From the NCBI GenBank assembly GCA_026400275.1, contig JAPLPK010000022.1, positions 475 through 64,474 of the forward strand: a stretch of DNA of 64,000 bases, read 5' to 3'. Source of the stretch: Burkholderiales bacterium (lineage in GTDB: Bacteria > Pseudomonadota > Gammaproteobacteria > Burkholderiales > Burkholderiaceae_C). This document shows positions 2,173 to 58,213 of the stretch, piece by piece. Each line of letters opens with the position of its first letter. The stretch's first letter is position 1. Under the pieces are notes generated by a model. That model saw nothing but the letters and a program-made list of their open reading frames with translations, did not search any database and was not told the DNA's origin. The position numbers and the translations under genes are program-made.

Positions 2173-2227
2173 TGCTATGCTATTCGTAGCTGCCAGCGCA
2201 GGTATTGACTGCGCTGGCGGCCTGAAA
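2173..2227 (+). repeat. Dispersed double-hairpin repeat, copy 1
   Basis: TGCTATGCTATTCGTAGCTGCCAGCGCAGGTATTGACTGCGCTGGCGGCC; matches the consensus TTGCTAT-N7/8-ATAGCTGCTAGCGCA-N9-TGCGCTAG. Confidence 0.85.
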
Positions 2228-2243
2228 GATGTAGATTTTCAGG

Positions 2244-2537
2244 CTACTTGAGCTCGACTTCGACAAACACGAAATCGTGGTCGTTGGCGTTCACCACGTT
2301 GTGCTCCACGCCGGTCAGCCGGGTGTAGGACTGGCCGGCGGTCAAGGCGCTGTGCATCTCGCCATCCGGGGTCTCCAGCAGCAGGGTGCCGCTGGTCATG
2401 GGCACCACCACATAGTCCATGCCGTGGCGGTGCCAGCCGGTGTGGGCGCCGGGTGGAAAGCGCCATTCGGTCACCTTGACGCGGGCATTGTCGATCTGCA
2501 CCGTCGGTATGGCCGAAGGGCGCTGCGTGGCGGTCAT
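2244..2537 (-). CDS. bauB: Cupin protein, BauB-like
   Basis: DNARVKVTEWRFPPGAHTGWHRH...GVEHNVVN cupin motif; directly downstream of the omega-aminotransferase, as in Pseudomonas bauAB. Confidence 0.8.
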   Translation of the reverse strand: MTATQRPSAIPTVQIDNARVKVTEWRFPPGAHTGWHRHGMDYVVVPMTSGTLLLETPDGEMHSALTAGQSYTRLTGVEHNVVNANDHDFVFVEVELK

Positions 2538-2542
2538 GCCGC

Positions 2543-3895
2543 TCAGGCCTGCGCGTTCAGCGTCTCGCCCAGGGCGTTCACCAGGCTGTCGATTTCGGCC
2601 GCGCTGATGATGAAGGGTGGTGCCAGCTGGATGGTGTCGCCACCGTAGCGCACGTAAAAGCCCTTCTTCCACATCGCCATGGCAATTTCGTAGGGGCGGC
2701 GTGCCGGCTCGCCAGGCAGTGCGGCGATGGTGATGCCGCTGGCCAGGCCGTAGTTGCGGATGTCGGTGACGTGCTTGGCACCCTTCAAACTGTGCACCGC
2801 GTTCTCGAAATGCGGGGCCATGCTGCGCACGCGCTGGGGCATGTCTTCCTTGACCAGGATGTCCAGCGTGGCCAGCGCCACGGCGCAGGCCACAGGGTGG
2901 GCCGAGTAGGTGTAGCCGTGGGCAAATTCCAGCATGTAGTCGGGGCCGCCAGCAGCCATGAAGGTGTCGTAGATGTCCTTCTTCACCAGCACCGCGCCCA
3001 TGGGCTGCGAGCCGTTGGTGATCTGCTTGGCCACGTTCATGATGTCGGGCGTGACGCCAAAGGCCTCGGCACCGGTCATCGCACCCATGCGGCCAAAGCC
3101 GGTGATCACTTCGTCAAATATCAACAGGATGTTGTGGGCCGTGCAGATCTCGCGCAGGCGCTGCAAGTAGCCCACGGGCGGCACCACCACGCCAGCCGAA
3201 CCGGACATGGGCTCCACAATGACGGCAGCGATGTTGCTCGCGTCGTGCAGGGTAATCAGGTCTAACAGCTCGTCGGCCAGCTCGGCGCCGCTGGTCGGCA
3301 TGCCGCGCGAGAAGGCGTTGCTTTTGAGCTGGGTGTGGGGCAGGTGATCGGCTTGCAGTGCCTCGCCAAACATCTTGCGGTTGGCACCGATGCCGCCCAC
3401 CGAGATGCCGCCAAAGCCCACGCCGTGGTAGCCCTTTTCGCGGCCAATGAAGCGCGTCTTGCTGGCCTGACCCTTGGTGCGCCAGTAGGCGCGCGCCATC
3501 TTCAGCGAGGTGTCGGCAGATTCCGAACCCGAGCCGGTGAAGAACACGTGGTCCAGGCCGGCGGGCGTCAATTCTTTCAGTTTATTGGCCAGCTCGAACG
3601 ACAGCGGGTGGCCGAACTGGAAGGCGGGCGAGTAGTCCAGCGTTGCCATTTGGTGCGCGGCGGCAGCGGTCAGCTCGGCGCGGCCATGGCCCAGGCCGGA
3701 ACACCACAGGCCGGACAGGCCGTCCAGTATCTGGCGACCGTCGATATCGGTGTAGTAGCAGCCCTTGGCACTGGTGATGATGCGCGGGTCGGCCTTGAAG
3801 TTGCGGTTGCCGCTGTAGGGCATCCAGTGCGCGTCCAGCCAGGCGGCGTCGGTACGGGGGCGTTGGCTGAGTTTGTGGCTGTCGGTCATGTCCAT
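2543..3895 (-). CDS. bauA: Omega-amino acid (beta-alanine):pyruvate aminotransferase, class III
   Basis: WMPYSGNRNF, DGLSGLWC, LLIFDEVITGFGR, PLP lysine in AKQITNG, HGYTYSAHP; start at 3895 or 3889. Confidence 0.88.
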   Translation of the reverse strand: MDMTDSHKLSQRPRTDAAWLDAHWMPYSGNRNFKADPRIITSAKGCYYTDIDGRQILDGLSGLWCSGLGHGRAELTAAAAHQMATLDYSPAFQFGHPLSFELANKLKELTPAGLDHVFFTGSGSESADTSLKMARAYWRTKGQASKTRFIGREKGYHGVGFGGISVGGIGANRKMFGEALQADHLPHTQLKSNAFSRGMPTSGAELADELLDLITLHDASNIAAVIVEPMSGSAGVVVPPVGYLQRLREICTAHNILLIFDEVITGFGRMGAMTGAEAFGVTPDIMNVAKQITNGSQPMGAVLVKKDIYDTFMAAGGPDYMLEFAHGYTYSAHPVACAVALATLDILVKEDMPQRVRSMAPHFENAVHSLKGAKHVTDIRNYGLASGITIAALPGEPARRPYEIAMAMWKKGFYVRYGGDTIQLAPPFIISAAEIDSLVNALGETLNAQA

Positions 3896-3986
3896 GGCGC
3901 GGTCCAGGTAGAAAAAGAATGGCTGGATTCTTGCCGCGCCTGTTACTCTCATAAAGAGTTAAATATCAATCTTCAGTTAGCAGAAT

Positions 3987-12750: not shown

Positions 12751-12766
12751 GGCGGGTTTGGGTCCA

Positions 12767-12780
12767 AAAAACCGGTTTCA
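12767..12780. promoter_or_regulatory. PtxS-type operator upstream of the regulator (autoregulation)
   Basis: AAAAACCGGTTTCA (TGAAACCGGTTTTT on the minus strand), 16 bp upstream of the ATG. Confidence 0.75.
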
Positions 12781-12879
12781 CACCGGGTGGACGATTGTGC
12801 CACCGGGCTCCGAATGCGGCGCTGATCGGGGTCCGCGCCGCGCCGCGACATGCCACCACTTTCTACCGCCATCCCTGTC

Positions 12880-13180
12880 TCAATCTCCCAGAATCCTCCG
12901 CTCCTTGGTCAGCTTGCCAAACCGCGCCCTGTCCGCATACGCCTTGGCACCAAACGCTGTGGGTGTCATTGGCGCCACATTGCCGCCGAGTCCGGCAATC
13001 CGCTCCGTCACCGCTTGCGTGGCCAGGATCTCGGCGGGCAGGCAGGCGGGGGCGTAGACGCCGAACACGGTGTCGGCGTCGGCACATCAGGGAACAGCAG
13101 CGAGCGGTGGGGGCTGCCGACGGCCAGCAGCTTGAGCGTGCAGGCGCGCACCTGGTTCAGGCCGATGCCGGGGTCGTGCT
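12880..13180 (-). pseudogene. Degraded C-terminal remnant of a Bug/TctC tricarboxylate-binding protein
   Basis: DPGIGLNQVRACTLKLLAVGSPHRSLLFPDVPT, then a frameshift, then ADTVFGVYAPACLPAEILATQAVTERIAGLGG...RFGKLTKERRILGD*; no 5' half or start. Confidence 0.8.
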
Positions 13181-13203
13181 GCCAGCGCCGGCAGGACGAC
13201 TGA

Positions 13204-13258
13204 TTGCTCCTAAAGTAATAGCTGCTGGTGCAGGTATTGTCTGCGCTATAGGCAATTT
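13204..13258 (+). repeat. Dispersed double-hairpin repeat, copy 2
   Basis: TTGCTCCTAAAGTAATAGCTGCTGGTGCAGGTATTGTCTGCGCTATAGGCAATTT. Confidence 0.85.
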
Positions 13259-13574
13259 ATTGGCACTTTATAGGCGACAGACTTTGAACGTAGGACAGCG
13301 CACCGCCGCGCTGTCGGACAAGCGCCAAATTGGCTCGCAGGCCCGCCCAAGCCTTGCTTTGCCCGGTGTAGAGGAACACATTAAGCCGGTGCCTGGCGAC
13401 GCCCGGCATGGCGGTGCCCCACCAGCCCATCGGTTTTTCAACCTGTCAGCATGCCCGCCTCGCGCGCCGGGCGTGTCTTAAGCCTCGTACCTCCCTCGTT
13501 TGTCCCTGCCACCACGGCGCCATGGCGCCGTGCGTGCAGCCTTTTGCCTCACTTTCCCTTACCGAGTAAACCCC

Positions 13575-14999
13575 ATGGCCCTGTACCAGACTGCCGAGTC
13601 CCACGATCTTTCCATCGAGGATGTGTATTCCAGCGGAGCTTCGGAGCGGCGCTTGCCCAAGTACCGCCTGCCCGACCATTCCACTGCGCCATCGGCGGCC
13701 TACAACCTGGTGCGCGACGAGCTGCTGCTGGACGGTAACTCGCGCCAGAACCTGGCCACGTTCTGCACCACCTGGGTTGAGCCCGAGGTGCAAAAGCTGA
13801 TGGCCGACGCGCTTGATAAGAACATGATCGATAAGGACGAATATCCCCAGACAGCCGAGATCGAAAACCGCTGCGTGCACATCATTGCCGACCTCTGGCA
13901 TGCGCCCAAATCCTGGGACACCATAGGCTGCTCGACCACCGGCTCCAGCGAAGCGGCCATGCTCGGGGGTCTGGCCCTGAAGTGGGCCTGGAAGAAGCGC
14001 CGCGAAGCTGCCGGGTTGCCCACGGACAAACCCAACTTTGTGTGCGGCCCGGTGCAGATCTGCTGGAAGAAGTTTGCCCGCTACTTCGACGTGGAAATGC
14101 GCGAAGTGCCGCTGCGTGGCGACGCCCTGGGCCTGCAGCCCGCCGACCTGCGCGCATACTGCGACGAGAACACCATTGGCGTGGTGGCGACGCTGGGCGT
14201 GACCTTCACTGGCGTGTATGAACCCGTGGCGGCGCTGGCGACCGAGCTGGACGCACTGGAGCGTGACCTGGGGCTGGACATTCCCATCCATGTGGATGCG
14301 GCCAGCGGTGGCTTTGTGGCGCCCTTCATCCAGCGCGAGCTGGAGTGGGATTTCTGCGTCGACCGGGTCAAGTCCATCAACGCGTCGGGCCACAAATACG
14401 GCCTGGCACCGCTGGGTGTGGGCTGGGTGGTGTGGCGCGCCAAGGCCGACCTGCCTCAGGAGCTGATCTTCAACGTGGACTACCTGGGCGGCAATATGCC
14501 GACCTTCGCGCTGAACTTCAGCCGGCCCGGCGGCGAAATCATCGCCCAGTACTACAACTTTCTGCGCCTGGGGCGCGACGGCTACACCCGCATCCAGCAG
14601 GCTTGCTCTGACACCGCGCAGTGGCTGGCGCAGGAGATCGCCAAGTTCAGCCCGCTGGAACTGGTGTATGACGGCAAGGACGGCCTGCCTGCGGTCTGCT
14701 ACAAGCTGAAGGACGGGGTGGAGCATGGCTTCACCTTGTACGACCTGTCCGAGCGCGTACGCATGCGCGGCTGGCAGATTGCCTCGTACCCGCTGCCTTC
14801 GGACCGGCAAACCGTGGTGGTGCAGCGCGTGTTGGTGCGCCATGGTGTCAGCCGCGATTTGATCGCCCTGCTGCTGGACGACTTGCGCAAGGCCATCGAC
14901 TTTTTGCAGCACAACCCGGTGCTGCGTTCCGATGCGGGCCCCAGCTTCAGCCACGGCGCGCTGGCTGAGCCGGACCCGCGCGTGTTGGCCGCAGCGTGA
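13575..14999 (+). CDS. gadB: Glutamate decarboxylase (PLP-dependent)
   Basis: DGNSRQNLATFCTTW, NMIDKDEYPQ, STTGSSEAAMLGG, HVDAASGGF, SINASGHKYG (PLP Lys). Confidence 0.93.
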   Translation: MALYQTAESHDLSIEDVYSSGASERRLPKYRLPDHSTAPSAAYNLVRDELLLDGNSRQNLATFCTTWVEPEVQKLMADALDKNMIDKDEYPQTAEIENRCVHIIADLWHAPKSWDTIGCSTTGSSEAAMLGGLALKWAWKKRREAAGLPTDKPNFVCGPVQICWKKFARYFDVEMREVPLRGDALGLQPADLRAYCDENTIGVVATLGVTFTGVYEPVAALATELDALERDLGLDIPIHVDAASGGFVAPFIQRELEWDFCVDRVKSINASGHKYGLAPLGVGWVVWRAKADLPQELIFNVDYLGGNMPTFALNFSRPGGEIIAQYYNFLRLGRDGYTRIQQACSDTAQWLAQEIAKFSPLELVYDGKDGLPAVCYKLKDGVEHGFTLYDLSERVRMRGWQIASYPLPSDRQTVVVQRVLVRHGVSRDLIALLLDDLRKAIDFLQHNPVLRSDAGPSFSHGALAEPDPRVLAAA

Positions 15000-16699: not shown

Positions 16700-16710
16700 T
16701 TATGGAAAAT

Positions 16711-16766
16711 TTGCTATGAAAAAAGCAGCTGCTACCGCAGGAATTACCTGCGTTAGCAGCCATTTT
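16711..16766 (+). repeat. Dispersed double-hairpin repeat, copy 3
   Basis: TTGCTATGAAAAAAGCAGCTGCTACCGCAGGAATTACCTGCGTTAGCAGCCATTTT, between convergent genes. Confidence 0.85.
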
Positions 16767-16784
16767 TATGCTTAGAAAATTGAC

Positions 16785-22782: not shown

Positions 22783-23400
22783 ATGCGCTCCTCCCTCCAA
22801 CCCAAAATTTCCTTCAAGCAGCAGATGCTGCAAGCCCGTGAAGAGGCCATCGTGCAAACCGTTAACCGGCTGCTGGCTGAAAAGGGCTTTGACGCCATGA
22901 CGGTGGACGAGGTGGCGCTGGGCGTGGGCATCGCCAAGGCCAGCCTGTACAAGCACTTTCCCAGCAAGGAAGACCTGGCCGCTGCCGCCATGGTGCGCGT
23001 GCTGCAGCGCACGCGGGACTTTTTGCAAACCCTGCCTGCCACCGATGCCCCTCTGTTGAAGCTGCAAGCCCTGGTGCGCTGGGCCATGCAGGTGCAGCTG
23101 GCCGGTGAGATGCCTTCGCTACCCAGCCAGAACTCCAGCCTGCGCGCCAACCTGATGGGCAATAACGCCTACCTGGATGTGTTGGTGCAGGTCAGCGACC
23201 AGCTCGGCGGCTGGATACAGGCCGCGCAAACCGCTGGCCAGATCAATCCGCAGTTGCCGGCCGTGGCCGTGCTGTACACGCTGTATGCGCGCGCCTGCGA
23301 TCCGGTGCTGGGCTTTTTGCAGGCCGGCGGCCAGCACAGCAACGAGCAGATCATTGAATGGGTGCTGTCCACCTGCTTTGATGGTCTGATTGCTCGCTAG
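22783..23400 (+). CDS. TetR/AcrR-family regulator
   Basis: KGFDAMTVDEVALGVGIAKASLYKHFPSKEDL. Confidence 0.92.
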   Translation: MRSSLQPKISFKQQMLQAREEAIVQTVNRLLAEKGFDAMTVDEVALGVGIAKASLYKHFPSKEDLAAAAMVRVLQRTRDFLQTLPATDAPLLKLQALVRWAMQVQLAGEMPSLPSQNSSLRANLMGNNAYLDVLVQVSDQLGGWIQAAQTAGQINPQLPAVAVLYTLYARACDPVLGFLQAGGQHSNEQIIEWVLSTCFDGLIAR

Positions 23401-23443
23401 CGCAGGTTTTATCTGCGCTGGCAGCTATTAAAATCATAGTAAA
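23389..23443 (-). repeat. Dispersed double-hairpin repeat, copy 4 (overlaps the TetR stop)
   Basis: Minus strand TTTACTATGATTTTAATAGCTGCCAGCGCAGATAAAACCTGCGCTAGCG. Confidence 0.85.
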
Positions 23444-25605: not shown

Positions 25606-25749
25606 GGCGGGTGGCGCAAACGTTTGCGCAGTGGTAAGTGCAGTGTGTTGCTTTATAGATACGGTGCATCGTCATGGCCATGCGCTGGTACGAAGACTGA
25701 TGCAGGTGCCAAAAAAACCGTTTTTGCATACCATATTTATAAACTGAGT

Positions 25750-25805
25750 TTGCTATGGTTATGAGAGCTGCTAGCGCAAAGAGCACATGCGTTAGAGGCA
25801 TATTC
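25750..25805 (+). repeat. Dispersed double-hairpin repeat, copy 5
   Basis: TTGCTATGGTTATGAGAGCTGCTAGCGCAAAGAGCACATGCGTTAGAGGCATATT. Confidence 0.8.
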
Positions 25806-26008
25806 CACAGCAATGTTTACATACGTATGAAAGCCCTTTACAGATCGGTCTGGCTAGCTTGCAGGGTGGCAAGTCGCAAGCTATTCATCACTGTGGTGAA
25901 TGGAGATCATCACAAAGATAAAGTAGGGTCGTATGGGTATAAACCCTAATATTCGCTTGCGTCTACGGCGATCCCGTCCAGAGGACGCTAGATCCAAAGG
26001 AAATTACC

Positions 26009-28767: not shown

Positions 28768-28824
28768 TTTCCACCCCGTAGAGCAGACAAATGCTGCACC
28801 AGTAGCTACAAGAAACGTAGCAAA
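28768..28824 (-). repeat. Dispersed double-hairpin repeat, copy 6
   Basis: Minus strand TTGCTACGTTTCTTGTAGCTACTGGTGCAGCATTTGTCTGCTCTACGGGG. Confidence 0.75.
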
Positions 28825-32933: not shown

Positions 32934-33074
32934 GGCAACGCTGAACAAGTCCCTCGCGGTCTGCGGCGTTGCAAATCCTCGCCATAGCCCAAGCTATGTC
33001 TGCGGTTTGCGCCTTGCATCCCATCCCGAGCCAGGGCGCGCAGCCTCGCGGGGACTTATTCAGTGTCGCCCTAA
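32930..33074. mobile_element. MITE/REPIN-like element with 24-bp imperfect terminal inverted repeats
   Basis: Left TTGAGGCAACGCTGAACAAGTCCC versus reverse complement of the right end TTAGGGCGACACTGAATAAGTCCC (19/24); palindromic interior; no coding capacity. Confidence 0.65.
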
Positions 33075-33079
33075 GCCCA

Positions 33080-33134
33080 ATCGGCCGCTGGCGCAAATAG
33101 CATTTGCGCAGGCAGCTCTTATTTATGTAGCATT
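33080..33134 (-). repeat. Dispersed double-hairpin repeat, copy 7 (overlaps the recQ 3' end)
   Basis: Minus strand ATGCTACATAAATAAGAGCTGCCTGCGCAAATGCTATTTGCGCCAGCGGCC. Confidence 0.82.
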
Positions 33135-34985: not shown

Positions 34986-34990
34986 TGCTT

Positions 34991-35046
34991 TTGCTCTGGA
35001 ATTTGTAGCTGCTGGCGCAGGTGGAGATTGCGCTAGGGGCTGATTT
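34991..35046 (+). repeat. Dispersed double-hairpin repeat, copy 8
   Basis: TTGCTCTGGAATTTGTAGCTGCTGGCGCAGGTGGAGATTGCGCTAGGGGCTGATTT. Confidence 0.85.
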
Positions 35047-35187
35047 TGTATGTAAACCAGCGAAGGGCTGGGCAAGGGTGTATTGTGCCCGGCCTGGAGG
35101 TCCCGAGAGGATGGTGCCTATGTCCGCCAGAGTGAGAAGCTACGCCGGGCTATAGTGGCCTTTCCTATGTCTGTTTTTGCCTAGATC

Positions 35188-38579: not shown

Positions 38580-39587
38580 ATGCAAAAAGTGCGCTGGGGC
38601 GTATTGAGTACCGCCAAGATCGGTATGGAAAAGGTCACCCCGGCGCTGATGCGCAGCCAGTGGTGCGATGTGCAGGCGATTGCCTCGCGCTCCTTGCCAT
38701 CGGCCCGTGCCGCTGCGGACACGCTGGGCATCCCCACCGCCTACGGCTCCTACGAAGAGCTGCTGGCCGACCCGAGCATCGAGGCCATTTACAACCCGCT
38801 GCCCAACGACTTGCATGTGCCCATGACCCTGGCCGCAGCCCGCGCCGGCAAGCATGTGCTGTGCGAAAAGCCTATCGCGTTGAACGCCAATGAAGCCGCG
38901 CAGCTGCGCGAGGTGGCTGGCAAGGTCCACATCATGGAAGCCTTCATGGTGCGCTTCCACCCGCAGTGGCTGCGCACGCGCGAGCTGGTGCAGAGCGGCG
39001 CCCTGGGCGAGCTGCGCACGGTGCAGGCCTGGTTCTCCTATTTCAACCGCAACCCCGACAACATCCGCAACGATGCGAGCAAGGGCGGCGGCGCGCTGTT
39101 CGACATCGGCTGCTACCCCATCGTCGCCGGGCGCTTTCTGTTCGGTGCCGAGCCGGTGCGCGTGATGGCGCTGGCCGACATGGACCCCGATTTCAATGTG
39201 GACCGCACTTTCAGCGCCTTGCTGGACTTTGGTGGCGGCCGGCACCTGGACTTCACCGTCTCCACCCAGTCCACGCCCTACCAGCGCGTGCACGTAGTGG
39301 GCACGCAGCAACGGGTGGAAATCGAGATTCCGTTCAACGCGCCCCAGGGTGAAGCCACCCGCATCTTCATCGACAACGGCAAGGCCTTGGACGGCGCCAG
39401 CGCCAGGGTGGAAAGCTTTGCGCCCTGCGACCAGTACAGCCTGGAAGGCGACGCGTTCTCGCTGGCGATCCGTGGTGAAGCCCCACTGCTGTACGGCGTG
39501 GAAGACGCGGTCCAGAACATGCGCATCATCGACGCGCTGTTTGCCTCGCAGCGCAGCGGGCGCTGGGAAACGCTGGCTGCTATTTAA
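38580..39587 (+). CDS. Gfo/Idh/MocA oxidoreductase
   Basis: RWGVLSTAKIG, GKHVLCEKP, GGGALFDIGCY. Confidence 0.92.
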   Translation: MQKVRWGVLSTAKIGMEKVTPALMRSQWCDVQAIASRSLPSARAAADTLGIPTAYGSYEELLADPSIEAIYNPLPNDLHVPMTLAAARAGKHVLCEKPIALNANEAAQLREVAGKVHIMEAFMVRFHPQWLRTRELVQSGALGELRTVQAWFSYFNRNPDNIRNDASKGGGALFDIGCYPIVAGRFLFGAEPVRVMALADMDPDFNVDRTFSALLDFGGGRHLDFTVSTQSTPYQRVHVVGTQQRVEIEIPFNAPQGEATRIFIDNGKALDGASARVESFAPCDQYSLEGDAFSLAIRGEAPLLYGVEDAVQNMRIIDALFASQRSGRWETLAAI

Positions 39588-39632
39588 TTGCTAGCTGCTT
39601 GTGCAGGTAATACCTGCGCTACAGGCCTATTT
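39578..39632 (+). repeat. Dispersed double-hairpin repeat, copy 9 (overlaps the oxidoreductase stop)
   Basis: TGCTATTTAATTGCTAGCTGCTTGTGCAGGTAATACCTGCGCTACAGGCCTATTT. Confidence 0.85.
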
Positions 39633-39633
39633 G

Positions 39634-40560
39634 TTATAAATTATTGGCGGATGTCGCCAGCAGTTTGCTGGCTTCCCTGCGGGCGCTGACCAGGGCGATA
39701 AAGCGCCGCGCCGCCAGGCCCAGCGGCCGTTCCTTGGACCAGACCACGTCTACCCACAGCTCCATGTGGTTGGTCAGGTTGTCGAACGGTATCTCCACCA
39801 GGCTACCAGCGGCAATCTGGCCGCGCACAAACGACTGCGGCAGCCAGCCCCAGCCAATGCCGGCCTCGATCAGGACCAGCGCGGCGATGTGGTTGTCGGT
39901 GCGCCAGCAGTGCCGGGCAAAGGCAAAGCGGCGGTCTATGGTGGCCAGGTCGCGGCTGGCCACCACGATCTGGCGGGTGTTGGTTAGTTGCTCTTCGCGC
40001 AGGCCGTCCGGGCCTTGCAGGGTGCGCGCCAGCAGCTCGGGCGACATCACCGCCACCAGGGTTTCGCTGCTGACCTCTTGAAAGCCTTCGCGCCCGTCCA
40101 GGCTAGGCCTCTCGAACACCAGGGCCAGGTTGGCCCGGCCTGCGTGCAGCATGCTCAACGCATCGGCCTGCGGTGCGGCCAGCACCTCCACTTCCAGCAG
40201 GGGATATTCCTGCGCCAGTGTGGCCAGTGGGCTGCGCCACTGGGCTGCCAGTAGCTCGGGGGCGATGGCCAGGGTCAAACGGTTTTCCAGCCCTTGCGTC
40301 AGCCCCAGTGCCTGTGCGTTCAGCTGCTGCAGCTGGCTGGCCAGCAGGCGGGCCTGCGGCTCCAGCGACCGCGCGGTGGCGGTGGGCCGGGGCTCGCGCC
40401 CGCTGCGGTCGAACAGCTCCAGCCCCAGCTCGGCCTCCAGGTGGGCGACGGCCATGCTGACTGCCGACGGCACCCGCCCCAGGGCGCGCGCTGCGGCCGA
40501 GAACGAGCCCCTGTCCAGCACGGCCAGAAATACCTGCACGCTCTCGGTGGTGAATGCCAT
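39634..40560 (-). CDS. LysR regulator (AceR-like position)
   Basis: GSFSAAARALGRVPSAVSMAV; divergent from the PACE transporter. Confidence 0.9.
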   Translation of the reverse strand: MAFTTESVQVFLAVLDRGSFSAAARALGRVPSAVSMAVAHLEAELGLELFDRSGREPRPTATARSLEPQARLLASQLQQLNAQALGLTQGLENRLTLAIAPELLAAQWRSPLATLAQEYPLLEVEVLAAPQADALSMLHAGRANLALVFERPSLDGREGFQEVSSETLVAVMSPELLARTLQGPDGLREEQLTNTRQIVVASRDLATIDRRFAFARHCWRTDNHIAALVLIEAGIGWGWLPQSFVRGQIAAGSLVEIPFDNLTNHMELWVDVVWSKERPLGLAARRFIALVSARREASKLLATSANNL

Positions 40561-42934: not shown

Positions 42935-43042
42935 GCTGGGGGAGGGGTGTAGAAGTAACAGATTGTCTGCGCGGGAAGTTTAGAGCTTTCTCGGGACCCA
43001 GGGTAGGGCGGCGGGTTCGCGCATAGCCTTTAAAATCGGCAC

Positions 43043-43118
43043 TTCCAAGGAGCGTTGCAGCGGGGCTGGTCCCCGTCAGGCTTGGAAAGCTCTTGTACGA
43101 GACCGCAACGACGCTCAC
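43043..43118 (+). ncRNA. SAH riboswitch
   Basis: P1 TTCCAAG/CTTGGAA; GAGCGTTGC pairs in a pseudoknot with CAACGACGCTC; P2 GCGGGG/CCCCGT followed by CAGG; 31 nt upstream of metH. Confidence 0.9.
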
Positions 43119-43149
43119 CTGAACCATGCCCCCTCCACAGGTGAGTTGA

Positions 43150-48276: not shown

Positions 48277-49364
48277 AATTCTGGCCCTGGCTGCTGCTGG
48301 CAGGGCTGTTGGCAGGCTGTGGCCCTGGCCAGCCGGTGCGCATAGGCTTTATTGCCAGCTTGTCCAACCGCAGTCCAGATGTCGAAGAGGACGGTCGCAA
48401 TGGCCTGATGCTGGCCATAGAGCAGCGCAACCAGGCCGGCGGCCTGGGCGGCCACCCGATTGAGCTGGTGGTGCGTGACAGCGGCCAGACGCCGCAACAG
48501 GCACAGTCGGCCATGCAGGCGCTGGTGCAGTCCAAGGTGGTGGTGGCGGTGGGCTCGATTACCAGTGCCACCGCCGCCTTGGTGGTGCCGCTGGCCGATG
48601 CGGCCCAGTTGGTGCTGGTCAGCCCCACGGTGACGTCCATGGATTTTGTGGGCAAAGATGACTACTTATTTCGCATGAACCGCAATGCACGCGAAAACGC
48701 CAGCGCGTATGCGGCCAAGCTGTTTCAGCGCGGCCAGCGCCGCGTGTCCGTGTTGTACGACATGCGCAACAAAAGCCTGTCCAGCTCCTGGGTCCACGAG
48801 TTCCGGTCTGCCTATGCCGCTGCGGGCGGCCAGGTGGCGGCCGAAGTGCCTTTTGGCGCGGAGGGGCAGGGCGTGGGCGACAGCGTGCGCCAGATGCTTG
48901 CGGCACAGCCAGACGGTTTGCTGTTCATCGCCGCAACGCTGGACGTGGCGCAGCTGGCCCAGCAGGCCGAAAAGCTGGCCCCCGGCTTGCCCAAGACAGC
49001 CTCGGAATGGGCTTCTGGCGACTATCTGGTGGAGCTGGGCGGACGGGCGGTAGAGGGCATGGTGACGTCCCAGGTGTTTGACCGTGCTGACACTTCCGAG
49101 CGTTACCGCCGCTTCCGTGATGCGTACCAGACGCGATTTGCACGGCCACCCAGCTTTAGCGCTGTAGCTTCGTTTGATGCGGGTACGGTTTTGCTGCAGG
49201 CTTTGGATCGGCGCTCCTGGCATGAGTCGGTCAAGGATGCCTTGCTGAAATACGGTCCCTACGAAGGGCTGCAGCAGAGCATCCAGTTCGACCGCTTTGG
49301 CGATGCCACGCGCAAGATGATCTTCACCCAGATCCAGGCGGGTCAGTTCGTGCCTTTGCCATGA
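48273..49364 (+). CDS. Branched-chain amino acid-type periplasmic binding lipoprotein
   Basis: GTG start overlapping the upstream stop; lipobox LAGC; VRIGFIASLS, GGLGGHPIELVVRD, SPTVTS. Confidence 0.88.
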   Translation: MKFWPWLLLAGLLAGCGPGQPVRIGFIASLSNRSPDVEEDGRNGLMLAIEQRNQAGGLGGHPIELVVRDSGQTPQQAQSAMQALVQSKVVVAVGSITSATAALVVPLADAAQLVLVSPTVTSMDFVGKDDYLFRMNRNARENASAYAAKLFQRGQRRVSVLYDMRNKSLSSSWVHEFRSAYAAAGGQVAAEVPFGAEGQGVGDSVRQMLAAQPDGLLFIAATLDVAQLAQQAEKLAPGLPKTASEWASGDYLVELGGRAVEGMVTSQVFDRADTSERYRRFRDAYQTRFARPPSFSAVASFDAGTVLLQALDRRSWHESVKDALLKYGPYEGLQQSIQFDRFGDATRKMIFTQIQAGQFVPLP

Positions 49365-51643
49365 TGGTTTGGCGGCTGCGCAGCTATCTGGCGGGTCTGC
49401 TGGTGGCCACTATGCTGGTGACCCTGGTGATTGTGGGCAGTGCCATTTTGTGGATGCGTATTCCGCAGATCGAGCAGGCCAACAAGGAAAAGGTGGCTCG
49501 GGACATCGGAGAGATGGCCGCCCTGATGGAGATTTTGCTGGGCTCGGTGGAGTCGCGTGTCCAGGTGCTCAGCCAGGCGGTGCGGCTGGCGCCTGCGTCG
49601 CAGGCGAATGCGCTGCTGGACGAAGCCGTGGGTAACGCGCATGTGATGGGGGCTATTTACCTGGTGTCGGGAGCTGGCCGTGTACTGGCTGCCGGTGTGC
49701 CTGAGACCCTGCGTGCCCAGCGCGAGGACTGGCTGGGCACCGATCTGTCGGCTAACCCGCTGTTTCGCGCGGCCCAGACCCGCCAGCAGCTGGTCTGGGG
49801 GGACAAATACCTGTCTCTCCTGTCCGGCGTGGTGACGGTAGGGCTGGCCTATCCGGTGGACGCCCAGCGTGTGCTGGTGGCCGAGGTGCCACTGTCGTAT
49901 TTGCTGCGCACCTTCCAGCTGGCGGCGGGCCAGCGTGACTCCCTCATCTGGCTGGTGGACCGGCGCGGCGAGGTGCTGGCCGATACCGAGGGGGGGGCGC
50001 TGGTGGGCCGCGTGAATGTGTTGAACCTCCCGCTGATATCTACCTTTCAACAGGGCCAGGCTTTGCCCGATCTGTTTAGCTTCATGGACCGGGAGTTTCA
50101 CCCGGCCATATCCCACTCCATGGACCTGGACTGGTATTTCTTGGGCGGCATGCCCTCTGGCCTGGAGAACCGAGAGATCCGCGGCCTGGTGGTAGTGGTT
50201 TTCACGGTATTTCTGGGGGCTCTGGTGGTGGGCTTCCTGTTGGCTCCGTTCTGGGCGTCCCGCTTGATACGCCCGCTGCGGGGGATTGTGGTGCGCGCCG
50301 GCCAAATATCTGCCGGCGAGCAGGTCGGCCCTTGGCCGCAGGGGACGATCGCCGAGTTCAACCGCCTCTCGGGCGACCTGGAAAAAATGGCGGCCACGCT
50401 GCAGGAGCGCCAGCAGAAATCTCAGGCCATCTTCAACACCTCGCCGGTGGCCATGTCGGTGACCAGCACGGAATCTCCGTTCGCCCTGCTGGACGTGAAT
50501 CTGGCCTGGTGCCGGGTGTTCCGGCGCCGCCGTGAAGATGCATTGGGCCGCACAGGGACGGAGCTGAATATGTGGCGCTCGCTGGACGACCGCGCGGCCA
50601 TGTTTGCCGCGTTCCAGGCAGGGCATGCCACCGCCGAGGCCTGGATGCTGCGCGGTGACGGCGAGCCCGTGCTGATTCAGCTGTCGCGTGACACGGTGCA
50701 GATCGGGGCCTTGCACATGATGGTCTGGGCGGGTGTGGATATTACCGAGATGCACCGCATCGATAACGCCTTGCGCGAGCTCAACGCCGAGCTGGAGGAG
50801 CGCGTGGCGCGCCGTACCGAGGCCCTGGCCGGTGCCAACGACGATCTCTCCACTGCCATTGCCGAGCTGCGCCAAACCCAGACCGAGCTGGTGCGGGCCG
50901 AAAAGATGGCGGCTCTGGGTGGCCTGGTGGCCGGCGTGGCGCACGAGCTGAACACCCCGCTGGGCAACGGCCTGATGGCGGTGACCGCGCTGGGCGATGA
51001 AGTGCGCAAGTTCAGGCAGTCCATGCAGAACGGGCTGCGGCGTACCGCCCTGGAGGCTCTGCTGTCCAGTGTCGAGCAGGCCACCGATATATCCACCCGC
51101 AACCTGTACCGCGCGGCAGAGCTGGTGAGCAACTTCAAGCAGGTGGCCGTGGACCAGACCAGCGCACAGCGCCGGCGTTTTGCGCTGGCCGAGGTAGTGG
51201 CCGAAATCGTCAGCAGCCTGCGCCCTTCGTTTGCGCGCACCCCTTACAAGGTGGTGGTGGAGATACCGCCCGGGCTGTGGATGGACAGCTACCCCGGTGC
51301 CTTGGGCCAGGTGGTGACTAATCTGGTCAATAACGCGGTGCTGCATGGCTTCGAAGGCCGCAACCAAGGCACGGTGCGTATCACCGGCGAGGCCCGAGAC
51401 GAGGGCTGGCTGATGCTACGCGTGGCCGACGACGGCCGTGGCATTCCAGCCGATTTGCTGGACCGCATTTTCGACCCCTTTGTGACCACCAAGATGGGTC
51501 GAGGCGGTACCGGCTTGGGTCTGCATATTTCCTATAACGCGGTAGTTAGCTTGCTGGGTGGCAGCATCAGCGTGCGCAGTGCGGAGGGTGAGGGGACGGA
51601 TTTCGAGTTGCTTCTGCCCAGCAGCGCGCCACGGGCGAGTTGA
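49361..51643 (+). CDS. Sensor histidine kinase (dCache-like, HAMP, PAS, HisKA, HATPase)
   Basis: LVAGVAHELNTPLG, NLVNNAVLHG, DDGRGI, PFVTTK, GGTGLGL. Confidence 0.92.
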   Translation: MMVWRLRSYLAGLLVATMLVTLVIVGSAILWMRIPQIEQANKEKVARDIGEMAALMEILLGSVESRVQVLSQAVRLAPASQANALLDEAVGNAHVMGAIYLVSGAGRVLAAGVPETLRAQREDWLGTDLSANPLFRAAQTRQQLVWGDKYLSLLSGVVTVGLAYPVDAQRVLVAEVPLSYLLRTFQLAAGQRDSLIWLVDRRGEVLADTEGGALVGRVNVLNLPLISTFQQGQALPDLFSFMDREFHPAISHSMDLDWYFLGGMPSGLENREIRGLVVVVFTVFLGALVVGFLLAPFWASRLIRPLRGIVVRAGQISAGEQVGPWPQGTIAEFNRLSGDLEKMAATLQERQQKSQAIFNTSPVAMSVTSTESPFALLDVNLAWCRVFRRRREDALGRTGTELNMWRSLDDRAAMFAAFQAGHATAEAWMLRGDGEPVLIQLSRDTVQIGALHMMVWAGVDITEMHRIDNALRELNAELEERVARRTEALAGANDDLSTAIAELRQTQTELVRAEKMAALGGLVAGVAHELNTPLGNGLMAVTALGDEVRKFRQSMQNGLRRTALEALLSSVEQATDISTRNLYRAAELVSNFKQVAVDQTSAQRRRFALAEVVAEIVSSLRPSFARTPYKVVVEIPPGLWMDSYPGALGQVVTNLVNNAVLHGFEGRNQGTVRITGEARDEGWLMLRVADDGRGIPADLLDRIFDPFVTTKMGRGGTGLGLHISYNAVVSLLGGSISVRSAEGEGTDFELLLPSSAPRAS

Positions 51644-51660
51644 GTGCGAATTGAGGGTGA

Positions 51661-51715
51661 AAAATGCTGCTAGCGCAGGAATTAACTACGCTGGCAGCTA
51701 TCAAAAGTATAGTAA
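51661..51715 (-). repeat. Dispersed double-hairpin repeat, copy 10
   Basis: Minus strand TTACTATACTTTTGATAGCTGCCAGCGTAGTTAATTCCTGCGCTAGCAGCATTTT. Confidence 0.85.
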
Positions 51716-51716
51716 T

Positions 51717-53246
51717 TTAGCTGGATGCTCGAAGCGCCCGGCGGTACTGCACGGCTTCGGCAATATGGCTGACATCGGTCGTGCTGGAGCCCGCCAGGTC
51801 GGCAATAGTGCGAGCCACTTTCAGCGTGCGGTGGATGCTGCGAGCCGACCAGCCCAGACGGGCTGCCGTGGTGTTCAGGAATTTGGCGGCGGCGCTGTCC
51901 AGTGCCACATGTTGGTCCATCTCCTGTCCTTGCAATGCCTGGTTGGACTTGCCCTGGCGCTCCATGGCCTGTTGCCGGGCGGCGCTGCTGCGTTGGCGAA
52001 TCGTCGCCGTGGATTCGCCTGGTGGCGCGTTGAGCAGGTCCTGGGCCGGCAGCGCCGGCACTTCGATATGCAGATCGATACGGTCCATCAAGGGGCCGCT
52101 GAGCTTGCCTTGGTAACGCAACACCTGGTCTGGCGAGCAGCGGCAGGCCTGCTGGCGCGAACCCAGGTAGCCGCAGGGGCAGGGGTTCATGGCGGCAATC
52201 AGCTGGAAGCGGGCTGGGAATTCGGCCCGCCGAGCAGCGCGCGAGATGGTGATGTGGCCGGTTTCCAGCGGCTCGCGCAGGGCCTCCAGTGCGGCCCTCG
52301 GAAATTCCGGCAGTTCATCTAAAAAGAGTACGCCATGGTGGGCCAGCGAGATTTCGCCGGGCCGCGGCGGCGATCCTCCGCCCACCAAAGCCACAGCGCT
52401 TGCGGTGTGGTGGGGGCTGCAAGTGGGGCGGGTTGCCCAGCGCTCCAGGGAGAAGCGCCCACCCAGGCTGGCCACGGCAGCACTTTGCAGCGCCTCTTCC
52501 ACTGTCATAGGGGGCAGTAGTCCGGCGAAACGCTGGGCCAGCATGGATTTGCCCGAACCTGGCGGCCCAATCAGCAGCAGGCTATGGCCTCCGGCGGCGG
52601 CAATCTCCAGTGCCCGTTTGGCCCCGGCCTGGCCTTTGACATCGGCCAGGTCGGCATAGCCGGCCGTGGCGGGCCGGGCGGTCTGTTGCAGTTGGCGCCA
52701 GCCTTCGGCCGGTGCGTCGCCTTCGCCTTGCGGCAAAAACTGCTGCACCACGTCCAGCAGATGCTGGGCGCAGTACACCTGCGCACCGGGCACCAGTGCG
52801 GCCTCTTCGGCGCTGCCCGGTGGCAATACCAGACGGGTGTGCACTTCTTGTGCGTGCAGCGCCAGGCTGGTGGCCAGCGCACCGCGCACCGGGCGCAATG
52901 CACCAGACAGCGACAACTCGCCGGCAAATTCGTGGCCGGTCAGGCGTTCTGCCGCAATCTGGCCGCTGGCGGCCAGGATGCCCAGCGCAATCGGCAGGTC
53001 GAAGCGGCCCGAGTCCTTGGGCAGGTCGGCCGGCGCCAGGTTGACGGTGATGCGCTTGTTGTGCGGAAACTCCAGGCCGGAGTTCTGGATGGCCGAGCGC
53101 ACGCGTTCGCGTGCCTCCTTGACCTCCACGTCCGCCAGCCCGACCAAGGTAAAGCTGGGCAGGCCGTTGGTTAGATGCACCTCAACGGTGACGGCGGGCG
53201 CTTCCAGGCCCAGCAAGGCACGGCTCTGCACCAAACACAAGCTCAT
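51717..53246 (-). CDS. comM: YifB/ComM Mg-chelatase-like AAA+ ATPase
   Basis: EARERVRSA, VNLAPADLPKDSGRFDLPIA, GPPGSGKSM, PGEISLAHHGVLFLDE, AMNPCPCG. Confidence 0.93.
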   Translation of the reverse strand: MSLCLVQSRALLGLEAPAVTVEVHLTNGLPSFTLVGLADVEVKEARERVRSAIQNSGLEFPHNKRITVNLAPADLPKDSGRFDLPIALGILAASGQIAAERLTGHEFAGELSLSGALRPVRGALATSLALHAQEVHTRLVLPPGSAEEAALVPGAQVYCAQHLLDVVQQFLPQGEGDAPAEGWRQLQQTARPATAGYADLADVKGQAGAKRALEIAAAGGHSLLLIGPPGSGKSMLAQRFAGLLPPMTVEEALQSAAVASLGGRFSLERWATRPTCSPHHTASAVALVGGGSPPRPGEISLAHHGVLFLDELPEFPRAALEALREPLETGHITISRAARRAEFPARFQLIAAMNPCPCGYLGSRQQACRCSPDQVLRYQGKLSGPLMDRIDLHIEVPALPAQDLLNAPPGESTATIRQRSSAARQQAMERQGKSNQALQGQEMDQHVALDSAAAKFLNTTAARLGWSARSIHRTLKVARTIADLAGSSTTDVSHIAEAVQYRRALRASS

Positions 53247-55597: not shown

Positions 55598-56497
55598 ATG
55601 ACCTGGCATACCGTCACCACCGAACCCAACCTCCTGGGCGAGTCTCCCTTTTGGCATCCGCAGGAAAAACGCCTGTACTGGGTCGATGTCCCCGGCAAGC
55701 TGCTGCAGCGCCTGGACGTGGCCAGCGGCGTGGTCGAGCGCTGGGCCATGCCTTCCGAGCCCGGCTGCATTGCCCCTGCTGCCAGCGGTGGCCTGGTGGT
55801 GGCGCTGCGCGAGGGTATTTACCGCGCGCCGGTCTGGGGTGGCGATCTGCAGCTATTGGCTGCCGCACCGTATGACCCGGTCACCACCCGCTTCAACGAC
55901 GGCAAGTGCGACCCGCTGGGCCGCTTCTGGGCCAGCACCATCTACGAGCCACGCGATGCGCGCAAGGCCGAGCTGTACTGCCTGGAGGCCGGCAGGCTGA
56001 GCAGCATGGCGGGCAACGCCATCACCGGCAACGGCCTGGCTTGGTCGCCCGACGCCAAGACCCTGTACTGGTCGGACACGCCGCACCACATCGTCCACGC
56101 CTGGGACTGGGACGCAGCCTCGAATGTGCTGTCGAACTACCGCGAATTCCTGCAGATGGCGCCCAAGCCCGCCGGCTGGCAGGCCGGCATGCCCGGCTAC
56201 GGCGGCCGCCCCGACGGCGCGGCGGTGGACGTACAGGGCAACTACTACTCGGCCCAGTTTGAAGGCCAGCGCCTGTGCAAGTTTTCGCCGGACGGCGAGC
56301 TGCTGAAGGCCTACCCGCTGCCCGTGCGCTGCCCCACCATGCCCTGCTTCGGCGGTGACGACCTGCAAACCCTGTACCTCACCAGCGGCCGCCATGGCCG
56401 TTCGGATGCAGAGCTGGCGGCGCTGCCCGCATCCGGCCATGTGCTGTCTTTGCGGGTCGATGTGCCGGGCCTGCCGGTGAATTTCTTCAAAGACTAG
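55598..56497 (+). CDS. SMP-30/gluconolactonase-family protein
   Basis: LGESPFW, RFNDGKCDPLGRFW, NGLAWSPD, GRPDG. Confidence 0.92.
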   Translation: MTWHTVTTEPNLLGESPFWHPQEKRLYWVDVPGKLLQRLDVASGVVERWAMPSEPGCIAPAASGGLVVALREGIYRAPVWGGDLQLLAAAPYDPVTTRFNDGKCDPLGRFWASTIYEPRDARKAELYCLEAGRLSSMAGNAITGNGLAWSPDAKTLYWSDTPHHIVHAWDWDAASNVLSNYREFLQMAPKPAGWQAGMPGYGGRPDGAAVDVQGNYYSAQFEGQRLCKFSPDGELLKAYPLPVRCPTMPCFGGDDLQTLYLTSGRHGRSDAELAALPASGHVLSLRVDVPGLPVNFFKD

Positions 56498-56498: not shown

Positions 56499-56555
56499 TT
56501 TGCTATTGTTTAAATAGCTGCTGGCGCAGCTAGTATCTGCGCAGTGAGAGTATTT
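56499..56555 (+). repeat. Dispersed double-hairpin repeat, copy 11
   Basis: TTTGCTATTGTTTAAATAGCTGCTGGCGCAGCTAGTATCTGCGCAGTGAGAGTATTT. Confidence 0.85.
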
Positions 56556-56581
56556 CTTATAAACCAAGGTAACTACTAGCT

Positions 56582-56702
56582 CCCCGCTGCAGGCTGAACG
56601 CGCGCATTCCAGAAACACCGCAGAACTGGCTTTGCCAGGCTGCTGGTGTTGCCCCCTGCAAGGGGGTTGGCGAAAGATGCGCAGCACTGTAGCCTGGGGG
56701 TG
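56582..56702. other. Multi-stem structured element (REP-like repeat or cis-regulatory RNA)
   Basis: Nested stems 56582-92/56687-99, 56614-23/56640-50, 56626-30/56634-38 and 56652-57/56661-66. Confidence 0.55.
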
Positions 56703-56713
56703 AGCCATAACCT

Positions 56714-57460
56714 ATGCGCCGCTTGCGCCATCTTTCTAGCCATCACCGCACCCCGGCTACCAACCGGCTGCTGGGTGGCCTGCTGGCGTTCAACGCGGGG
56801 GCCATCAACGCCGGGGGCTTTCTGGTGGTGGGCATGTACACCTCGCACATGAGCGGTTTTGCGTCCATGGTGGCCGACAACCTGGTGCTGGGCCAGTTCA
56901 CCTTGGTGTTAGGCGCGCTGGGTACCTTGCTGGCCTTCACCTGCGGCGCGGCCACCACGGCAGTGCTGGTCAACTGGGCGCGCCAGCACCATTTGCGTAG
57001 CGCCTACGCCTTGCCCTTGCTGTGCGAGGCGCTGCTGATGCTGGTGTTCGGCCTGATCGGCGCCACGCTGAACCGCCAAACCCCGTTTGCCGTGCCGCTC
57101 ACTGTGCTGGTGCTGGCCTACACCATGGGCCTGCAGAACGCGCTGATCAGCAAGATCTCCCTGTCGCAGATCCGCACCACCCACATGACCGGCGTGGTGA
57201 CCGACCTGGGCATTGAGCTGGGCAAGATGCTCTACATGAACCGCCAGGGCAGCCCGGTCGAATCGCGCGTGCGGGCCAACCTCGTCAAGATGCGTCTGTA
57301 CGGCACCTTGTTAGGCGCCTTCGTCACGGGCGGGCTGGTGGGCGCCACCGGCTTCAAATACGTGGGCTTCATCTGGGTGGTACCGCTGGCACTGCTGCTC
57401 TTGGCCTTGTCGCTGCCGCCGCTGGTGGCGGACCTGGCCCGCCCGCGCCCGGTACGTTAA
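56714..57460 (+). CDS. YoaK/DUF1275 membrane protein
   Basis: AFNAGAINAGGF, YTSHMSG, MGLQNA, IRTTHMTGVVTDLG. Confidence 0.9.
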   Translation: MRRLRHLSSHHRTPATNRLLGGLLAFNAGAINAGGFLVVGMYTSHMSGFASMVADNLVLGQFTLVLGALGTLLAFTCGAATTAVLVNWARQHHLRSAYALPLLCEALLMLVFGLIGATLNRQTPFAVPLTVLVLAYTMGLQNALISKISLSQIRTTHMTGVVTDLGIELGKMLYMNRQGSPVESRVRANLVKMRLYGTLLGAFVTGGLVGATGFKYVGFIWVVPLALLLLALSLPPLVADLARPRPVR

Positions 57461-57466
57461 GCCAGG

Positions 57467-58105
57467 TTAAGCCACGTCCTGCGGCCGGGGGTGGCCGGGC
57501 ATCAGCGCATAGGGCGCGACCCAGCCCGGCTGGCCTTGGATGCGCTGCAGCCAGGCGCCAATTGCCGGGTAATCGGCCCAGTCCACGCCAAATTCAGCCG
57601 GCCAGAACAGGTAGCCGCATAGCGACAAGTCAGCCGTGGTCAGCCGCTCGCCCACTACGTATTGCCTGCCTTCCAGGTGCTGGTTCAGTATCTTCAGTGC
57701 TGCCACCATGCGCCCGCGCAAAAAGGCGGTGACCGGCGTTTCGCCCGTCTTGGCGAACTGCAGCTGGAAGCGCAGTGTGGCGATGTTGCTGGTCAGCTTG
57801 TGGTTGTCGAACAGGGTCCAGCGCAGTATCTCGCGGCGCTCGTCCTCGTTGGCCGGCGCCAGCTGCGGGAACTGTGCGGCCAGATAGTCCAGGATCACGC
57901 CCGACTGGCTGAGGCGCAGCCCGTTGTGCTCCAGTACCGGCACCTCGCCCATCACGTTGATCTCGCGGTAGGCCGGCGTGCGGGTTTCGCCGTTGAAGAA
58001 ATCGACAAAGCGCGGCGTCCATTCGGCGCCGCAGAGCTGCAGCGCCAGCGCCACCTTGTAGGCATTGCCCGACTGGGCGAAACAATAAAGTTGGTAAGCG
58101 GCCAT
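57467..58105 (-). CDS. Glutathione S-transferase
   Basis: SGNAYKVALAL, NVMGEVPVLE, LSQSGVILDYLA, TTADLSL. Confidence 0.92.
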   Translation of the reverse strand: MAAYQLYCFAQSGNAYKVALALQLCGAEWTPRFVDFFNGETRTPAYREINVMGEVPVLEHNGLRLSQSGVILDYLAAQFPQLAPANEDERREILRWTLFDNHKLTSNIATLRFQLQFAKTGETPVTAFLRGRMVAALKILNQHLEGRQYVVGERLTTADLSLCGYLFWPAEFGVDWADYPAIGAWLQRIQGQPGWVAPYALMPGHPRPQDVA

Positions 58106-58157
58106 GGTGTCTTTCGGGTGGGGTGGGCTGAATGCGCCATCGTAGCCGCAACTCTGG

Positions 58158-58213
58158 ATGCTCTGTTTTTGATAGCTGATAGTGCACAGGGAATATGCGC
58201 TGGAAGGCTTTTT
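58158..58213 (+). repeat. Dispersed double-hairpin repeat, copy 12
   Basis: ATGCTCTGTTTTTGATAGCTGATAGTGCACAGGGAATATGCGCTGGAAGGCTTTTT. Confidence 0.75.

Follow-up and report, generated by a model that had tools for sequence, protein, structure and literature searches.

The DNA analysed here is a stretch of 64 kb (referred to throughout as the window) from the draft genome of a Burkholderiales bacterium (4.55 Mb, 62% GC, 249 contigs), corresponding to positions 475–64474 of contig C128 (JAPLPK010000022.1). Dispersed along the window are the copies of a short palindromic repeat. Five lie in convergent junctions between genes, two in tandem regions behind a stop codon, and the others are located in 5′ or divergent regions. 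A preliminary description, made from the letters of the window, listed 12 copies, eight on the plus and four on the minus strand. All twelve positions and strands are borne out by a covariance model (R1) that was based upon 132 ungapped copies from this genome and its relatives. On the 64-kb window 11 of the copies score 46–63 bits (E = 1e-18 to 1e-26), and the twelfth is weak. A 15-nt core, with up to three mismatches allowed, is matched 15 times in the window, compared with 2.4 matches expected, and none of 100 shuffled sequences reaches 15. No Rfam family matches the repeat at the gathering threshold in a scan of the window, where the only match is to an S-adenosylhomocysteine (SAH) riboswitch. 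The literature was searched for the letters of the motif, for repetitive extragenic palindromic (REP) sequences of Polaromonas and for an uptake sequence of Comamonadaceae; none of the papers covered describes it. The individual copies are itemized in Table 1, and are named by the positions at which they were first listed.

The unit is about 64 nt in length and reads TTGCTAT-(AT-rich 7)-ATAGC-TGCTN-GCGCAGG-TATTA-CCTGCGC-TAGAGGC-CTATTT-nTTATAAA. Starting at the 5′ end, a GCTA-N9/10-TAGC palindrome directly abuts a GC-rich hairpin of the form GCGC-N11-GCGC, following which an invariant, unpaired TT lies in the 3′ tail (C-T-A-TTT). The central palindrome extends over ~30 nt. The invariant or nearly invariant positions are C5, T6, A18, G19, C20, G28, C29, G41 to C44, T55 and T56. 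The consensus given in the preliminary description was right in essence, although the unit is longer and includes the invariant TT of the 3′ ATTT tail. Its further statement, that the stems are conserved while the loops vary freely, is half true; loop lengths are fixed, with the GCGC-N11-GCGC spacing present in 563 of 589 copies (96%), and the central loop is lineage-specific. At position −4 of the GC hairpin 69% of copies carry A and 29% carry G, and the TAG that comes after it is nearly invariant. That the repeat lacks the GTAG-flanked layout of REP sequences is therefore only partly true, because an (A/G)TAG tag directly precedes the GC hairpin; a true GTAG is found in only ~29% of copies. 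The calculated folding energy is −19.6 kcal/mol, compared with −11.1 kcal/mol for shuffled sequences, and is equal on both strands. The copies are AT-richer than the genome and uniform in length, and T-rich tails follow copies in both orientations. Beyond the unit the flank profile is flat, with no terminal inverted repeats or target duplications.

Iterated nhmmer searching of the whole genome finds 806 non-overlapping copies, i.e. one per 5.6 kb, and 644 of these are near full length. A strict pattern has 409 matches in the genome and none in the reversed control, and the commonest 14-mers of the genome are words derived from the family. Almost all the copies are different. Among 639 cores 638 are distinct, with a median identity of 62% in pairwise comparison and 73% to the consensus, and there are no subfamilies, mutual information linking adjacent columns only. 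This genome contains no inverted dimers, no clusters and no master sequence with many identical copies. Neighbouring copies within 300 bp make up 1%, compared with 6% expected (10 pairs, nine of them direct), and counts in 10-kb segments give a variance/mean ratio of 0.58, the spacing being more even than random. In that tenth of the 10-kb segments which has the most atypical codon usage and the lowest GC, the frequency of copies is 3.5-fold lower. The two strands are used about equally (392 plus, 414 minus), and there is no relation to the direction of neighbouring genes (182 same, 165 opposite). No strand switch between replichores is seen for the best 150 copies of the complete chromosome G115, from another genus (best split p = 0.1, permutation p = 0.42). 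A GC-skew test of orientation in the draft genome also gave no bias for the copies, but genes were equally unbiased, so that this test is uninformative.

The position of the copies relative to genes was analysed using our own codon-usage caller (4003 genes, 86% coding). Convergent junctions contain 191 copies, and 36% of all such junctions are occupied. A further 347 lie in tandem intergenic regions, at a median of 16 nt past the upstream stop codon and 81 nt before the next start, 57 are in divergent regions, 45 at contig ends and 166 within gene calls, where 153 are fully inside open reading frames (ORFs; 19% of 806). Thus 67% of the copies are located in tandem or convergent intergenic DNA. 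Expressed as density, there are 2.9 copies per kb in convergent, 0.97 in tandem and 0.39 in divergent regions; within genes the figure is 0.04. The earlier view of a REP-like dispersed hairpin repeat that is concentrated just past stop codons is supported by this distribution. That most copies lie at gene 3′ ends or convergent junctions is true for seven of the 12 in the window, but this overlooked the genic fifth of the genome-wide set. Hairpin energy also changes with context, from −11.4 kcal/mol in genes to −13.4 in tandem and −15.1 kcal/mol in convergent regions. Several copies supply stop codons; for example, copy 39578 provides both TAA 39585–39587 and the minus-strand TAA 39634–39636. 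With 45 of 806 copies at contig ends, the repeat probably contributes to the fragmentation of the 249-contig assembly.

This arrangement resembles that of REP sequences and bacterial interspersed mosaic elements, which are present as hundreds of imperfect GC palindromes with a -TAG tag before the stem, mostly downstream of genes. These elements are found between unidirectional and convergent ORFs, and some of their copies provide stop codons or lie within genes, notably those of DNA repair (PMC3733652). Intragenic members of the GTAG-tagged REP superfamily of many-copy imperfect GC palindromes are already known as such (Di Nocera 2013, PMC3733652). Unlike these elements, however, the present repeat is 64 nt long with five fixed boxes, has a second, AT-loop palindrome, and carries ATAG as its tag in 69% of copies. 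It rarely forms pairs or clusters and has no REPtron, 19% of its copies are genic without lengthening the protein, and it exhibits dialects at orthologous sites (see below). It is rated as a dispersed signal that is either REP-like or like the uptake signal sequences (USS) and DNA uptake sequences (DUS) of other bacteria.

Could the repeat be purely an RNA element, a set of bidirectional intrinsic terminators or mRNA 3′-end stabilisers that are alike by common descent? Such a role would account for the two-thirds of copies in tandem or convergent regions, their proximity to stop codons and the large fraction of convergent junctions occupied. The greatest stability of the hairpin at those junctions, the T-rich tails in both orientations and the stop codons supplied by several copies would also be expected. 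Yet 19% of the copies lie inside essential genes and are conserved there across genera, and 57 are found where genes diverge, i.e. in promoter regions. It is as sequence, and without covariation, that the boxes and the unpaired TT are conserved; the U-tract is not adjacent to the stem, a simple terminator scan of 30–45 kb was negative for the hairpins, and lineage-wide shifts of dialect are not needed by terminators. A family of terminators and nothing else fits poorly, and is considered very unlikely. Termination or 3′-end processing by the intergenic copies is plausible.

The copies within genes are located in long, high-scoring ORFs, along which they are evenly spread, and the lengths of the host genes agree with the length-proportional (length-biased) expectation. 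All six frames are used, with one phase strongly preferred for each orientation. Four copies in three proteins were compared with distant homologues of solved structure, taking 18–21 extra residues as the yardstick for a complete insertion. At MutS residues 384–402 the difference in length from Neisseria MutS is two residues. The first copy in PutA aligns residue for residue with Bradyrhizobium PutA (a difference of 0) and the second differs in length by three residues, and the first copy in PurL adds seven residues relative to Salmonella PurL. Among 23 genic copies in contigs of other Comamonadaceae, 14 are matched in our genome by a copy on the same codons, and both PurL sites belong to these. 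The remaining nine have no copy here, and the length difference is 0–2 residues in five, four in one and 12–22 in three. Orthologous genic copies retain the boxes; identity over the whole motif (0.71) is no higher than that of the coding DNA on either side (0.75), and the invariant positions, including the unpaired TT, are as well conserved in genic as in intergenic copies. On these alignments the genic copies occupy existing codons, and are not insertions. The idea that they fill gaps in the spacing was ruled out, since their removal disturbs the spacing no more than that of random intergenic copies. Rickettsia palindromic elements are also palindromic repeats that are translated in frame within conserved genes. 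They are insertions that add 30–50 residues, unlike the situation here, where the host proteins differ by only 0–7 residues (four copies, three proteins).

[quoted passage not shown] Dispersed, AT-rich copies of uniform length would suit such an origin. However, the flank profile has neither terminal inverted repeats nor target duplications, there are no young copies, genic copies sit on existing codons, and the conservation of the boxes at orthologous sites far exceeds the drift of adjacent positions. A MITE fits poorly; it is extremely improbable, and close to refuted.

In relatives with 85–91% identity between genes, six of the window copies (23389, 25750, 28768, 39578, 51661 and 56499) occupy the same intergenic position. 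The central hairpin takes different forms in different lineages. Our genome and the relatives G012 and G009 have the dialect GCGC-AGGTATTACCT-GCGC, whereas G004, G013 and G015 have GCGC-T(T/G)ATGGAATAA-GCGC at the same density (1.5–2.0 per 10 kb). The orthologous copies of 39578, 34991 and 25750 each show the dialect of their own genome. The change of dialect preserves pairing, A-T becoming T-A and GG/CC becoming TAT/ATA, and in a mixed alignment two-sided pair changes number 134, compared with 88 ± 10, above every shuffle. This symmetry does not prove a hairpin, because a homodimer bound to duplex DNA would give the same symmetric change. Counts made with the strict pattern had suggested that the family was absent from half of the genus; this was wrong, as profile searches reveal equal density in the other dialect.

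Beyond the genus, R1 was applied to one genome per genus of the GTDB family (~120 genera). Top counts, each to be read as at least the number found, are present in ~28 genera, and ~10 more have 15–35 matches. The remaining ~80 have few matches (~40 genomes) or none (41 genomes). The repeat was previously called lineage-specific; this does not hold in any narrow sense, given its abundance in ~38 of the 120 genera sampled. Contigs with the exact pattern come from Polaromonas, Rhodoferax/Albidiferax, Curvibacter, Simplicispira, Acidovorax temperans, Variovorax, Giesbergeria and Ca. Aalborgicola. The beta-proteobacterial repeat element, BRE, has been reported in Polaromonas, Rhodoferax and Acidovorax (PMC3110155). 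It is ~90 bp in length with 69% GC, is arranged in tandem, and has no more than 29 copies per genome (Hot 2011, PMC3110155). Identity with BRE was rejected; size, GC content, tandem layout and copy number all mark it as a different family. Comparison across the genomes indicates that the present motif is old and vertically inherited, with its boxes kept at fixed spacing in every context.

Table 1. Copies of the repeat in the window, with scores against model R1, genomic context and occurrence at the same site in relatives.
Copy	Position	Strand	R1 score	Context	Relatives
2173	2174..2223	+	47.5 bits, E = 4e-19	Tandem region, 21 nt downstream of stop of minus-strand gene 2244-2537; orientation opposite to transcription	
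13204	13203..13266	+	50.0 bits	Intergenic region 12751-13574; begins at stop of uncalled ORF 12850-13203	
16711	16710..16773	+	46.8 bits	Fills convergent junction, 11 nt to each stop (14996-16699 plus, 16785-18236 minus)	
23389	23380..23443	-	46.2 bits	Convergent junction; covers final 20 nt of gene 22759-23400	Same site in G012 (orthologue alignment)
25750	25749..25812	+	47.6 bits	Divergent region 25606-26008	Same site in G012, G013, G004 and G015, there with central arms drifted or in the other dialect
28768	28775..28821	-	16.3 bits, E = 2e-4	Decayed, weak copy; upstream of gene 26671-28536	Orthologous copies in four relatives (alignment)
33080	33071..33134	-	59.7 bits	Convergent junction; overlaps stop of recQ-like gene 33123-34985	Missing in G004 and G015, where both genes abut
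34991	34990..35053	+	63.4 bits	5 nt upstream of recQ-like start (translation)	Orthologues in G004, G013 and G015, each in its own dialect
39578	39576..39639	+	61.9 bits	Spans entire convergent junction	Same site in seven relatives, central hairpin lineage-specific in each
51661	51653..51716	-	54.6 bits	Convergent junction (49361-51643 plus, 51717-53234 minus)	Orthologues in G012 and G009
56499	56499..56562	+	54.7 bits	Tandem region; begins 2 nt past stop of gene 55598-56497	Orthologue in G013
58158	58157..58220	+	47.8 bits	Upstream of, or at far 5' end of, minus-strand GST-like gene (translation)	
	60403..60447	-	11.1 bits, E = 0.07	Possible thirteenth copy, very weak; core with three mismatches; within gene 59513-60712	

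Copy 58158 is probably in a 5′ region, because the likely true start of the GST-like gene is an internal methionine. The recQ-like gene (minus strand) has a copy at both ends, one over its stop codon and the other just upstream of its start. Within the divergent region at ~18237–18393 a copy is present in G004 and G013, and our genome retains what appears to be its 3′ third, apparently the result of a partial deletion. The SAH riboswitch (RF01057, 57 bits) lies at 43041–43123 on the plus strand, upstream of a long ORF with its start at 43150. Just upstream of this riboswitch five relatives have a copy of the repeat that our genome lacks. Nearby, ~1.9 kb at 41108–43012 (genes 41259–42284 and 42326–42934) is absent at the matching place in G009 and G012, a local rearrangement beside the lost copy. 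Another short palindromic repeat, GC-rich and unrelated to the family, is GCCCCCTGCAAGGGGG(C/T), located at ~56660–56680 of the window; it has ~60 copies genome-wide and is among the commonest 14-mers.

The preliminary description raised a substrate of a RAYT/HUH transposase as one possibility. The sole Y1_Tnp gene of the genome lies outside the window at C80:15324–16019, and matches NCBIfam REP_Tyr_transpos with 80.9 bits against a cut-off of 80. The element that contains it (C80:15214–16071) is single-copy, adjacent to gltB, and present in nearly every genome of the family. On both sides of the gene lies a 17-bp inverted repeat, GGGGTCAGATTCCAATT; these are its only two copies in the genome. 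It is not flanked by the repeat family in this genome, and there is thus no REPtron. The flanking repeats begin GGGGTCAG, fitting the published GGGGWSAS motif, and as judged from its flanks the gene fits the TIRtron/TIRYT class and not the REP-flanked REPtron. The resemblance to TIRtrons (Di Nocera 2013, PMC3733652) concerns the candidate enzyme and not the repeat. Homologues are found in 15 of 16 genomes of the genus, where they are single-copy and vertically inherited. In the family they are present in 116 of 121 genomes, independently of the abundance of the motif, including ~80 genomes with few or no copies. In seven relatives, and only there, a single copy of the repeat lies directly 3′ of the Y1 gene.

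The resident Y1 nuclease (RAYT/TIRYT) might spread or homogenise the repeat, either by nick-initiated copying or by gene conversion. The ends of IS200/IS605 elements combine a hairpin with a guide sequence and a site of cleavage. By comparison the enzyme would read the hairpin of the repeat together with the complementary GCTA/TAGC tetranucleotides. The (A/G)TAG tag adjoins the foot of the hairpin, the invariant complementary CT/AG beside it is reminiscent of the guide/cleavage layout of IS608, and dialects would suit the co-evolution of enzyme and substrate. The match to REP_Tyr_transpos, the vertical inheritance of a single-copy gene and the copy 3′ of the gene in seven relatives point in the same direction. 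Against this, a copy is expected in any case at 13–36% of such 3′ sites, the gene has its own unique inverted repeats, and its homologues are widespread in genomes that are poor in the motif or free of it. Identical copies, dimers and clusters are not found, the genic copies are not insertions, and the orientation of 150 copies shows no replichore bias in the complete chromosome. A role as substrate of the enzyme is thus unsupported, and we consider it unlikely. The REPIN-RAYT system shares with the repeat its vertical inheritance, a lineage-specific sequence type and a single-copy Y1 gene (Bertels and Rainey 2011, PMC3116915). It differs in that the repeat has no inverted doublets or master sequence, and in that the Y1 gene here is neither flanked by the repeat nor correlated with its abundance.

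On balance, and with moderate confidence, we regard the repeat as an old, vertically inherited, sequence-specific DNA signal, which has the appearance of a REP but is not an active transposon. The occupation of in-place codons in essential genes, the concerted dialects and the conservation of the boxes across genera call for a genome-wide directional force. Very few signals of bacteria, to our knowledge, are subject to a force of this sort (USS/DUS, Chi and KOPS). Sites would arise and persist in place, mostly via point substitution, and the force could be purifying selection or a bias in transmission or repair. A putative trans-acting protein would read the boxes on duplex or extruded-hairpin DNA, co-evolving with them. 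That the motif folds (~−20 kcal/mol) and is best tolerated in 3′ intergenic DNA may explain why copies accumulate just past stop codons. The 3′-end copies, where the hairpin is strongest, would probably double as a bidirectional transcript-end or mRNA-protecting hairpin, in the manner of REP sequences. The candidates for the reader, in order of preference, would be the DNA-uptake machinery (with the repeat as a USS/DUS-like signal), a protein of nucleoid or topoisomerase type, and the resident Y1 ‘TIRYT’ nuclease.

Several points weigh against reading the repeat as a maintained signal with a hairpin function. The gene calls are crude. A simple terminator scan of 30–45 kb calls none of the copies there a terminator. 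Gaps of 12–22 amino acids opposite some genic copies of other genomes indicate that insertion or deletion also happens. A search for clean empty sites, by which an ancient insertion as the origin of intergenic copies would be excluded, yielded none, the only absences seen being the partial deletion at ~18252 and the rearranged site at ~43008. The evidence on dialects consists of only three to four orthologous sites plus the genome-wide consensus. Variable stem pairs (for example T/C with A/G) do not covary within the genome, but are statistically independent by mutual information and contingency tables; the inner pairs show no more than a weak excess. A structural role consequently rests only on the change of dialect and on folding energies. 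Lastly, the directional force and the protein that would read the motif are things that we only infer.

A specific version of such a signal would be a DNA uptake signal, the sequence by which the type IV pilus/competence machinery recognises DNA of its own kind, with gene-end copies co-opted as terminators. Fragments that bear the motif would be preferentially taken up and recombined, so that sites accumulate in place. As far as the account of Frye (2013) given in PMC4212676 goes, USS (Pasteurellaceae) and DUS (Neisseriaceae, with dialects) are overrepresented in both orientations, and are present within genes in preferred frames without change of length. Enrichment in native DNA, even spacing, lineage dialects and frequent location at terminators are further features in common with the repeat. 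The repeat has genic copies of this kind with a strong preference of frame, and every copy differs, with no subfamilies. Both orientations are used, without bias for gene or replichore, atypical DNA is depleted, and the spacing is more even than random. Lineage dialects are seen at orthologous sites, the boxes (unpaired TT included) are equally conserved in genic and intergenic copies, and no 14-mers of the genome are commoner than words of the family. Natural competence by way of type IV pili is a property of three Comamonadaceae, Verminephrobacter eiseniae, Acidovorax temperans and A. facilis, with transformation that is apparently self-specific and with no known uptake sequence (PMC4212676), and A. 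temperans carries the motif. The genome encodes ComEC, although this is uninformative because ComEC is near-universal.

However, known uptake signals have non-palindromic cores of 9–12 bp and are ~5 times denser, and a span of 52 bp with two palindromes would be unprecedented. The motif here is ~5 times longer than USS/DUS, palindromic, five times less dense and far more intergenic, and it is known from sequence alone. Both the strong 3′-end bias and the pairing-preserving change of dialect point to a hairpin, which uptake does not need, and simple divergence of sequence may account for the published failure of transformation between species. Of all known classes, uptake signal sequences are the one that the pattern of the repeat matches best. 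Its length, palindromy and low density are unlike USS/DUS, and for this reason an uptake signal is held to be the leading specific candidate and not a verdict; taken by itself it is possible, but on the tentative side. No more than tentatively, then, might the motif be the self-recognition uptake signal of competent Comamonadaceae, which would constitute a third, independent and structurally different system after USS and DUS.

In practice the motif breaks assemblies, makes spurious ORF extensions and supplies stop codons. The finding also makes it directly testable which sequence lies behind the self-specific natural transformation reported for Verminephrobacter and Acidovorax, a question that the literature leaves open. 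If the repeat is a signal kept by its host, many freshwater and soil Comamonadaceae, among them Polaromonas, Rhodoferax, relatives of Acidovorax, and Curvibacter, would devote ~1% of their non-coding capacity to it. If it is an uptake signal, dialects at the level of species would limit transformation to close kin.

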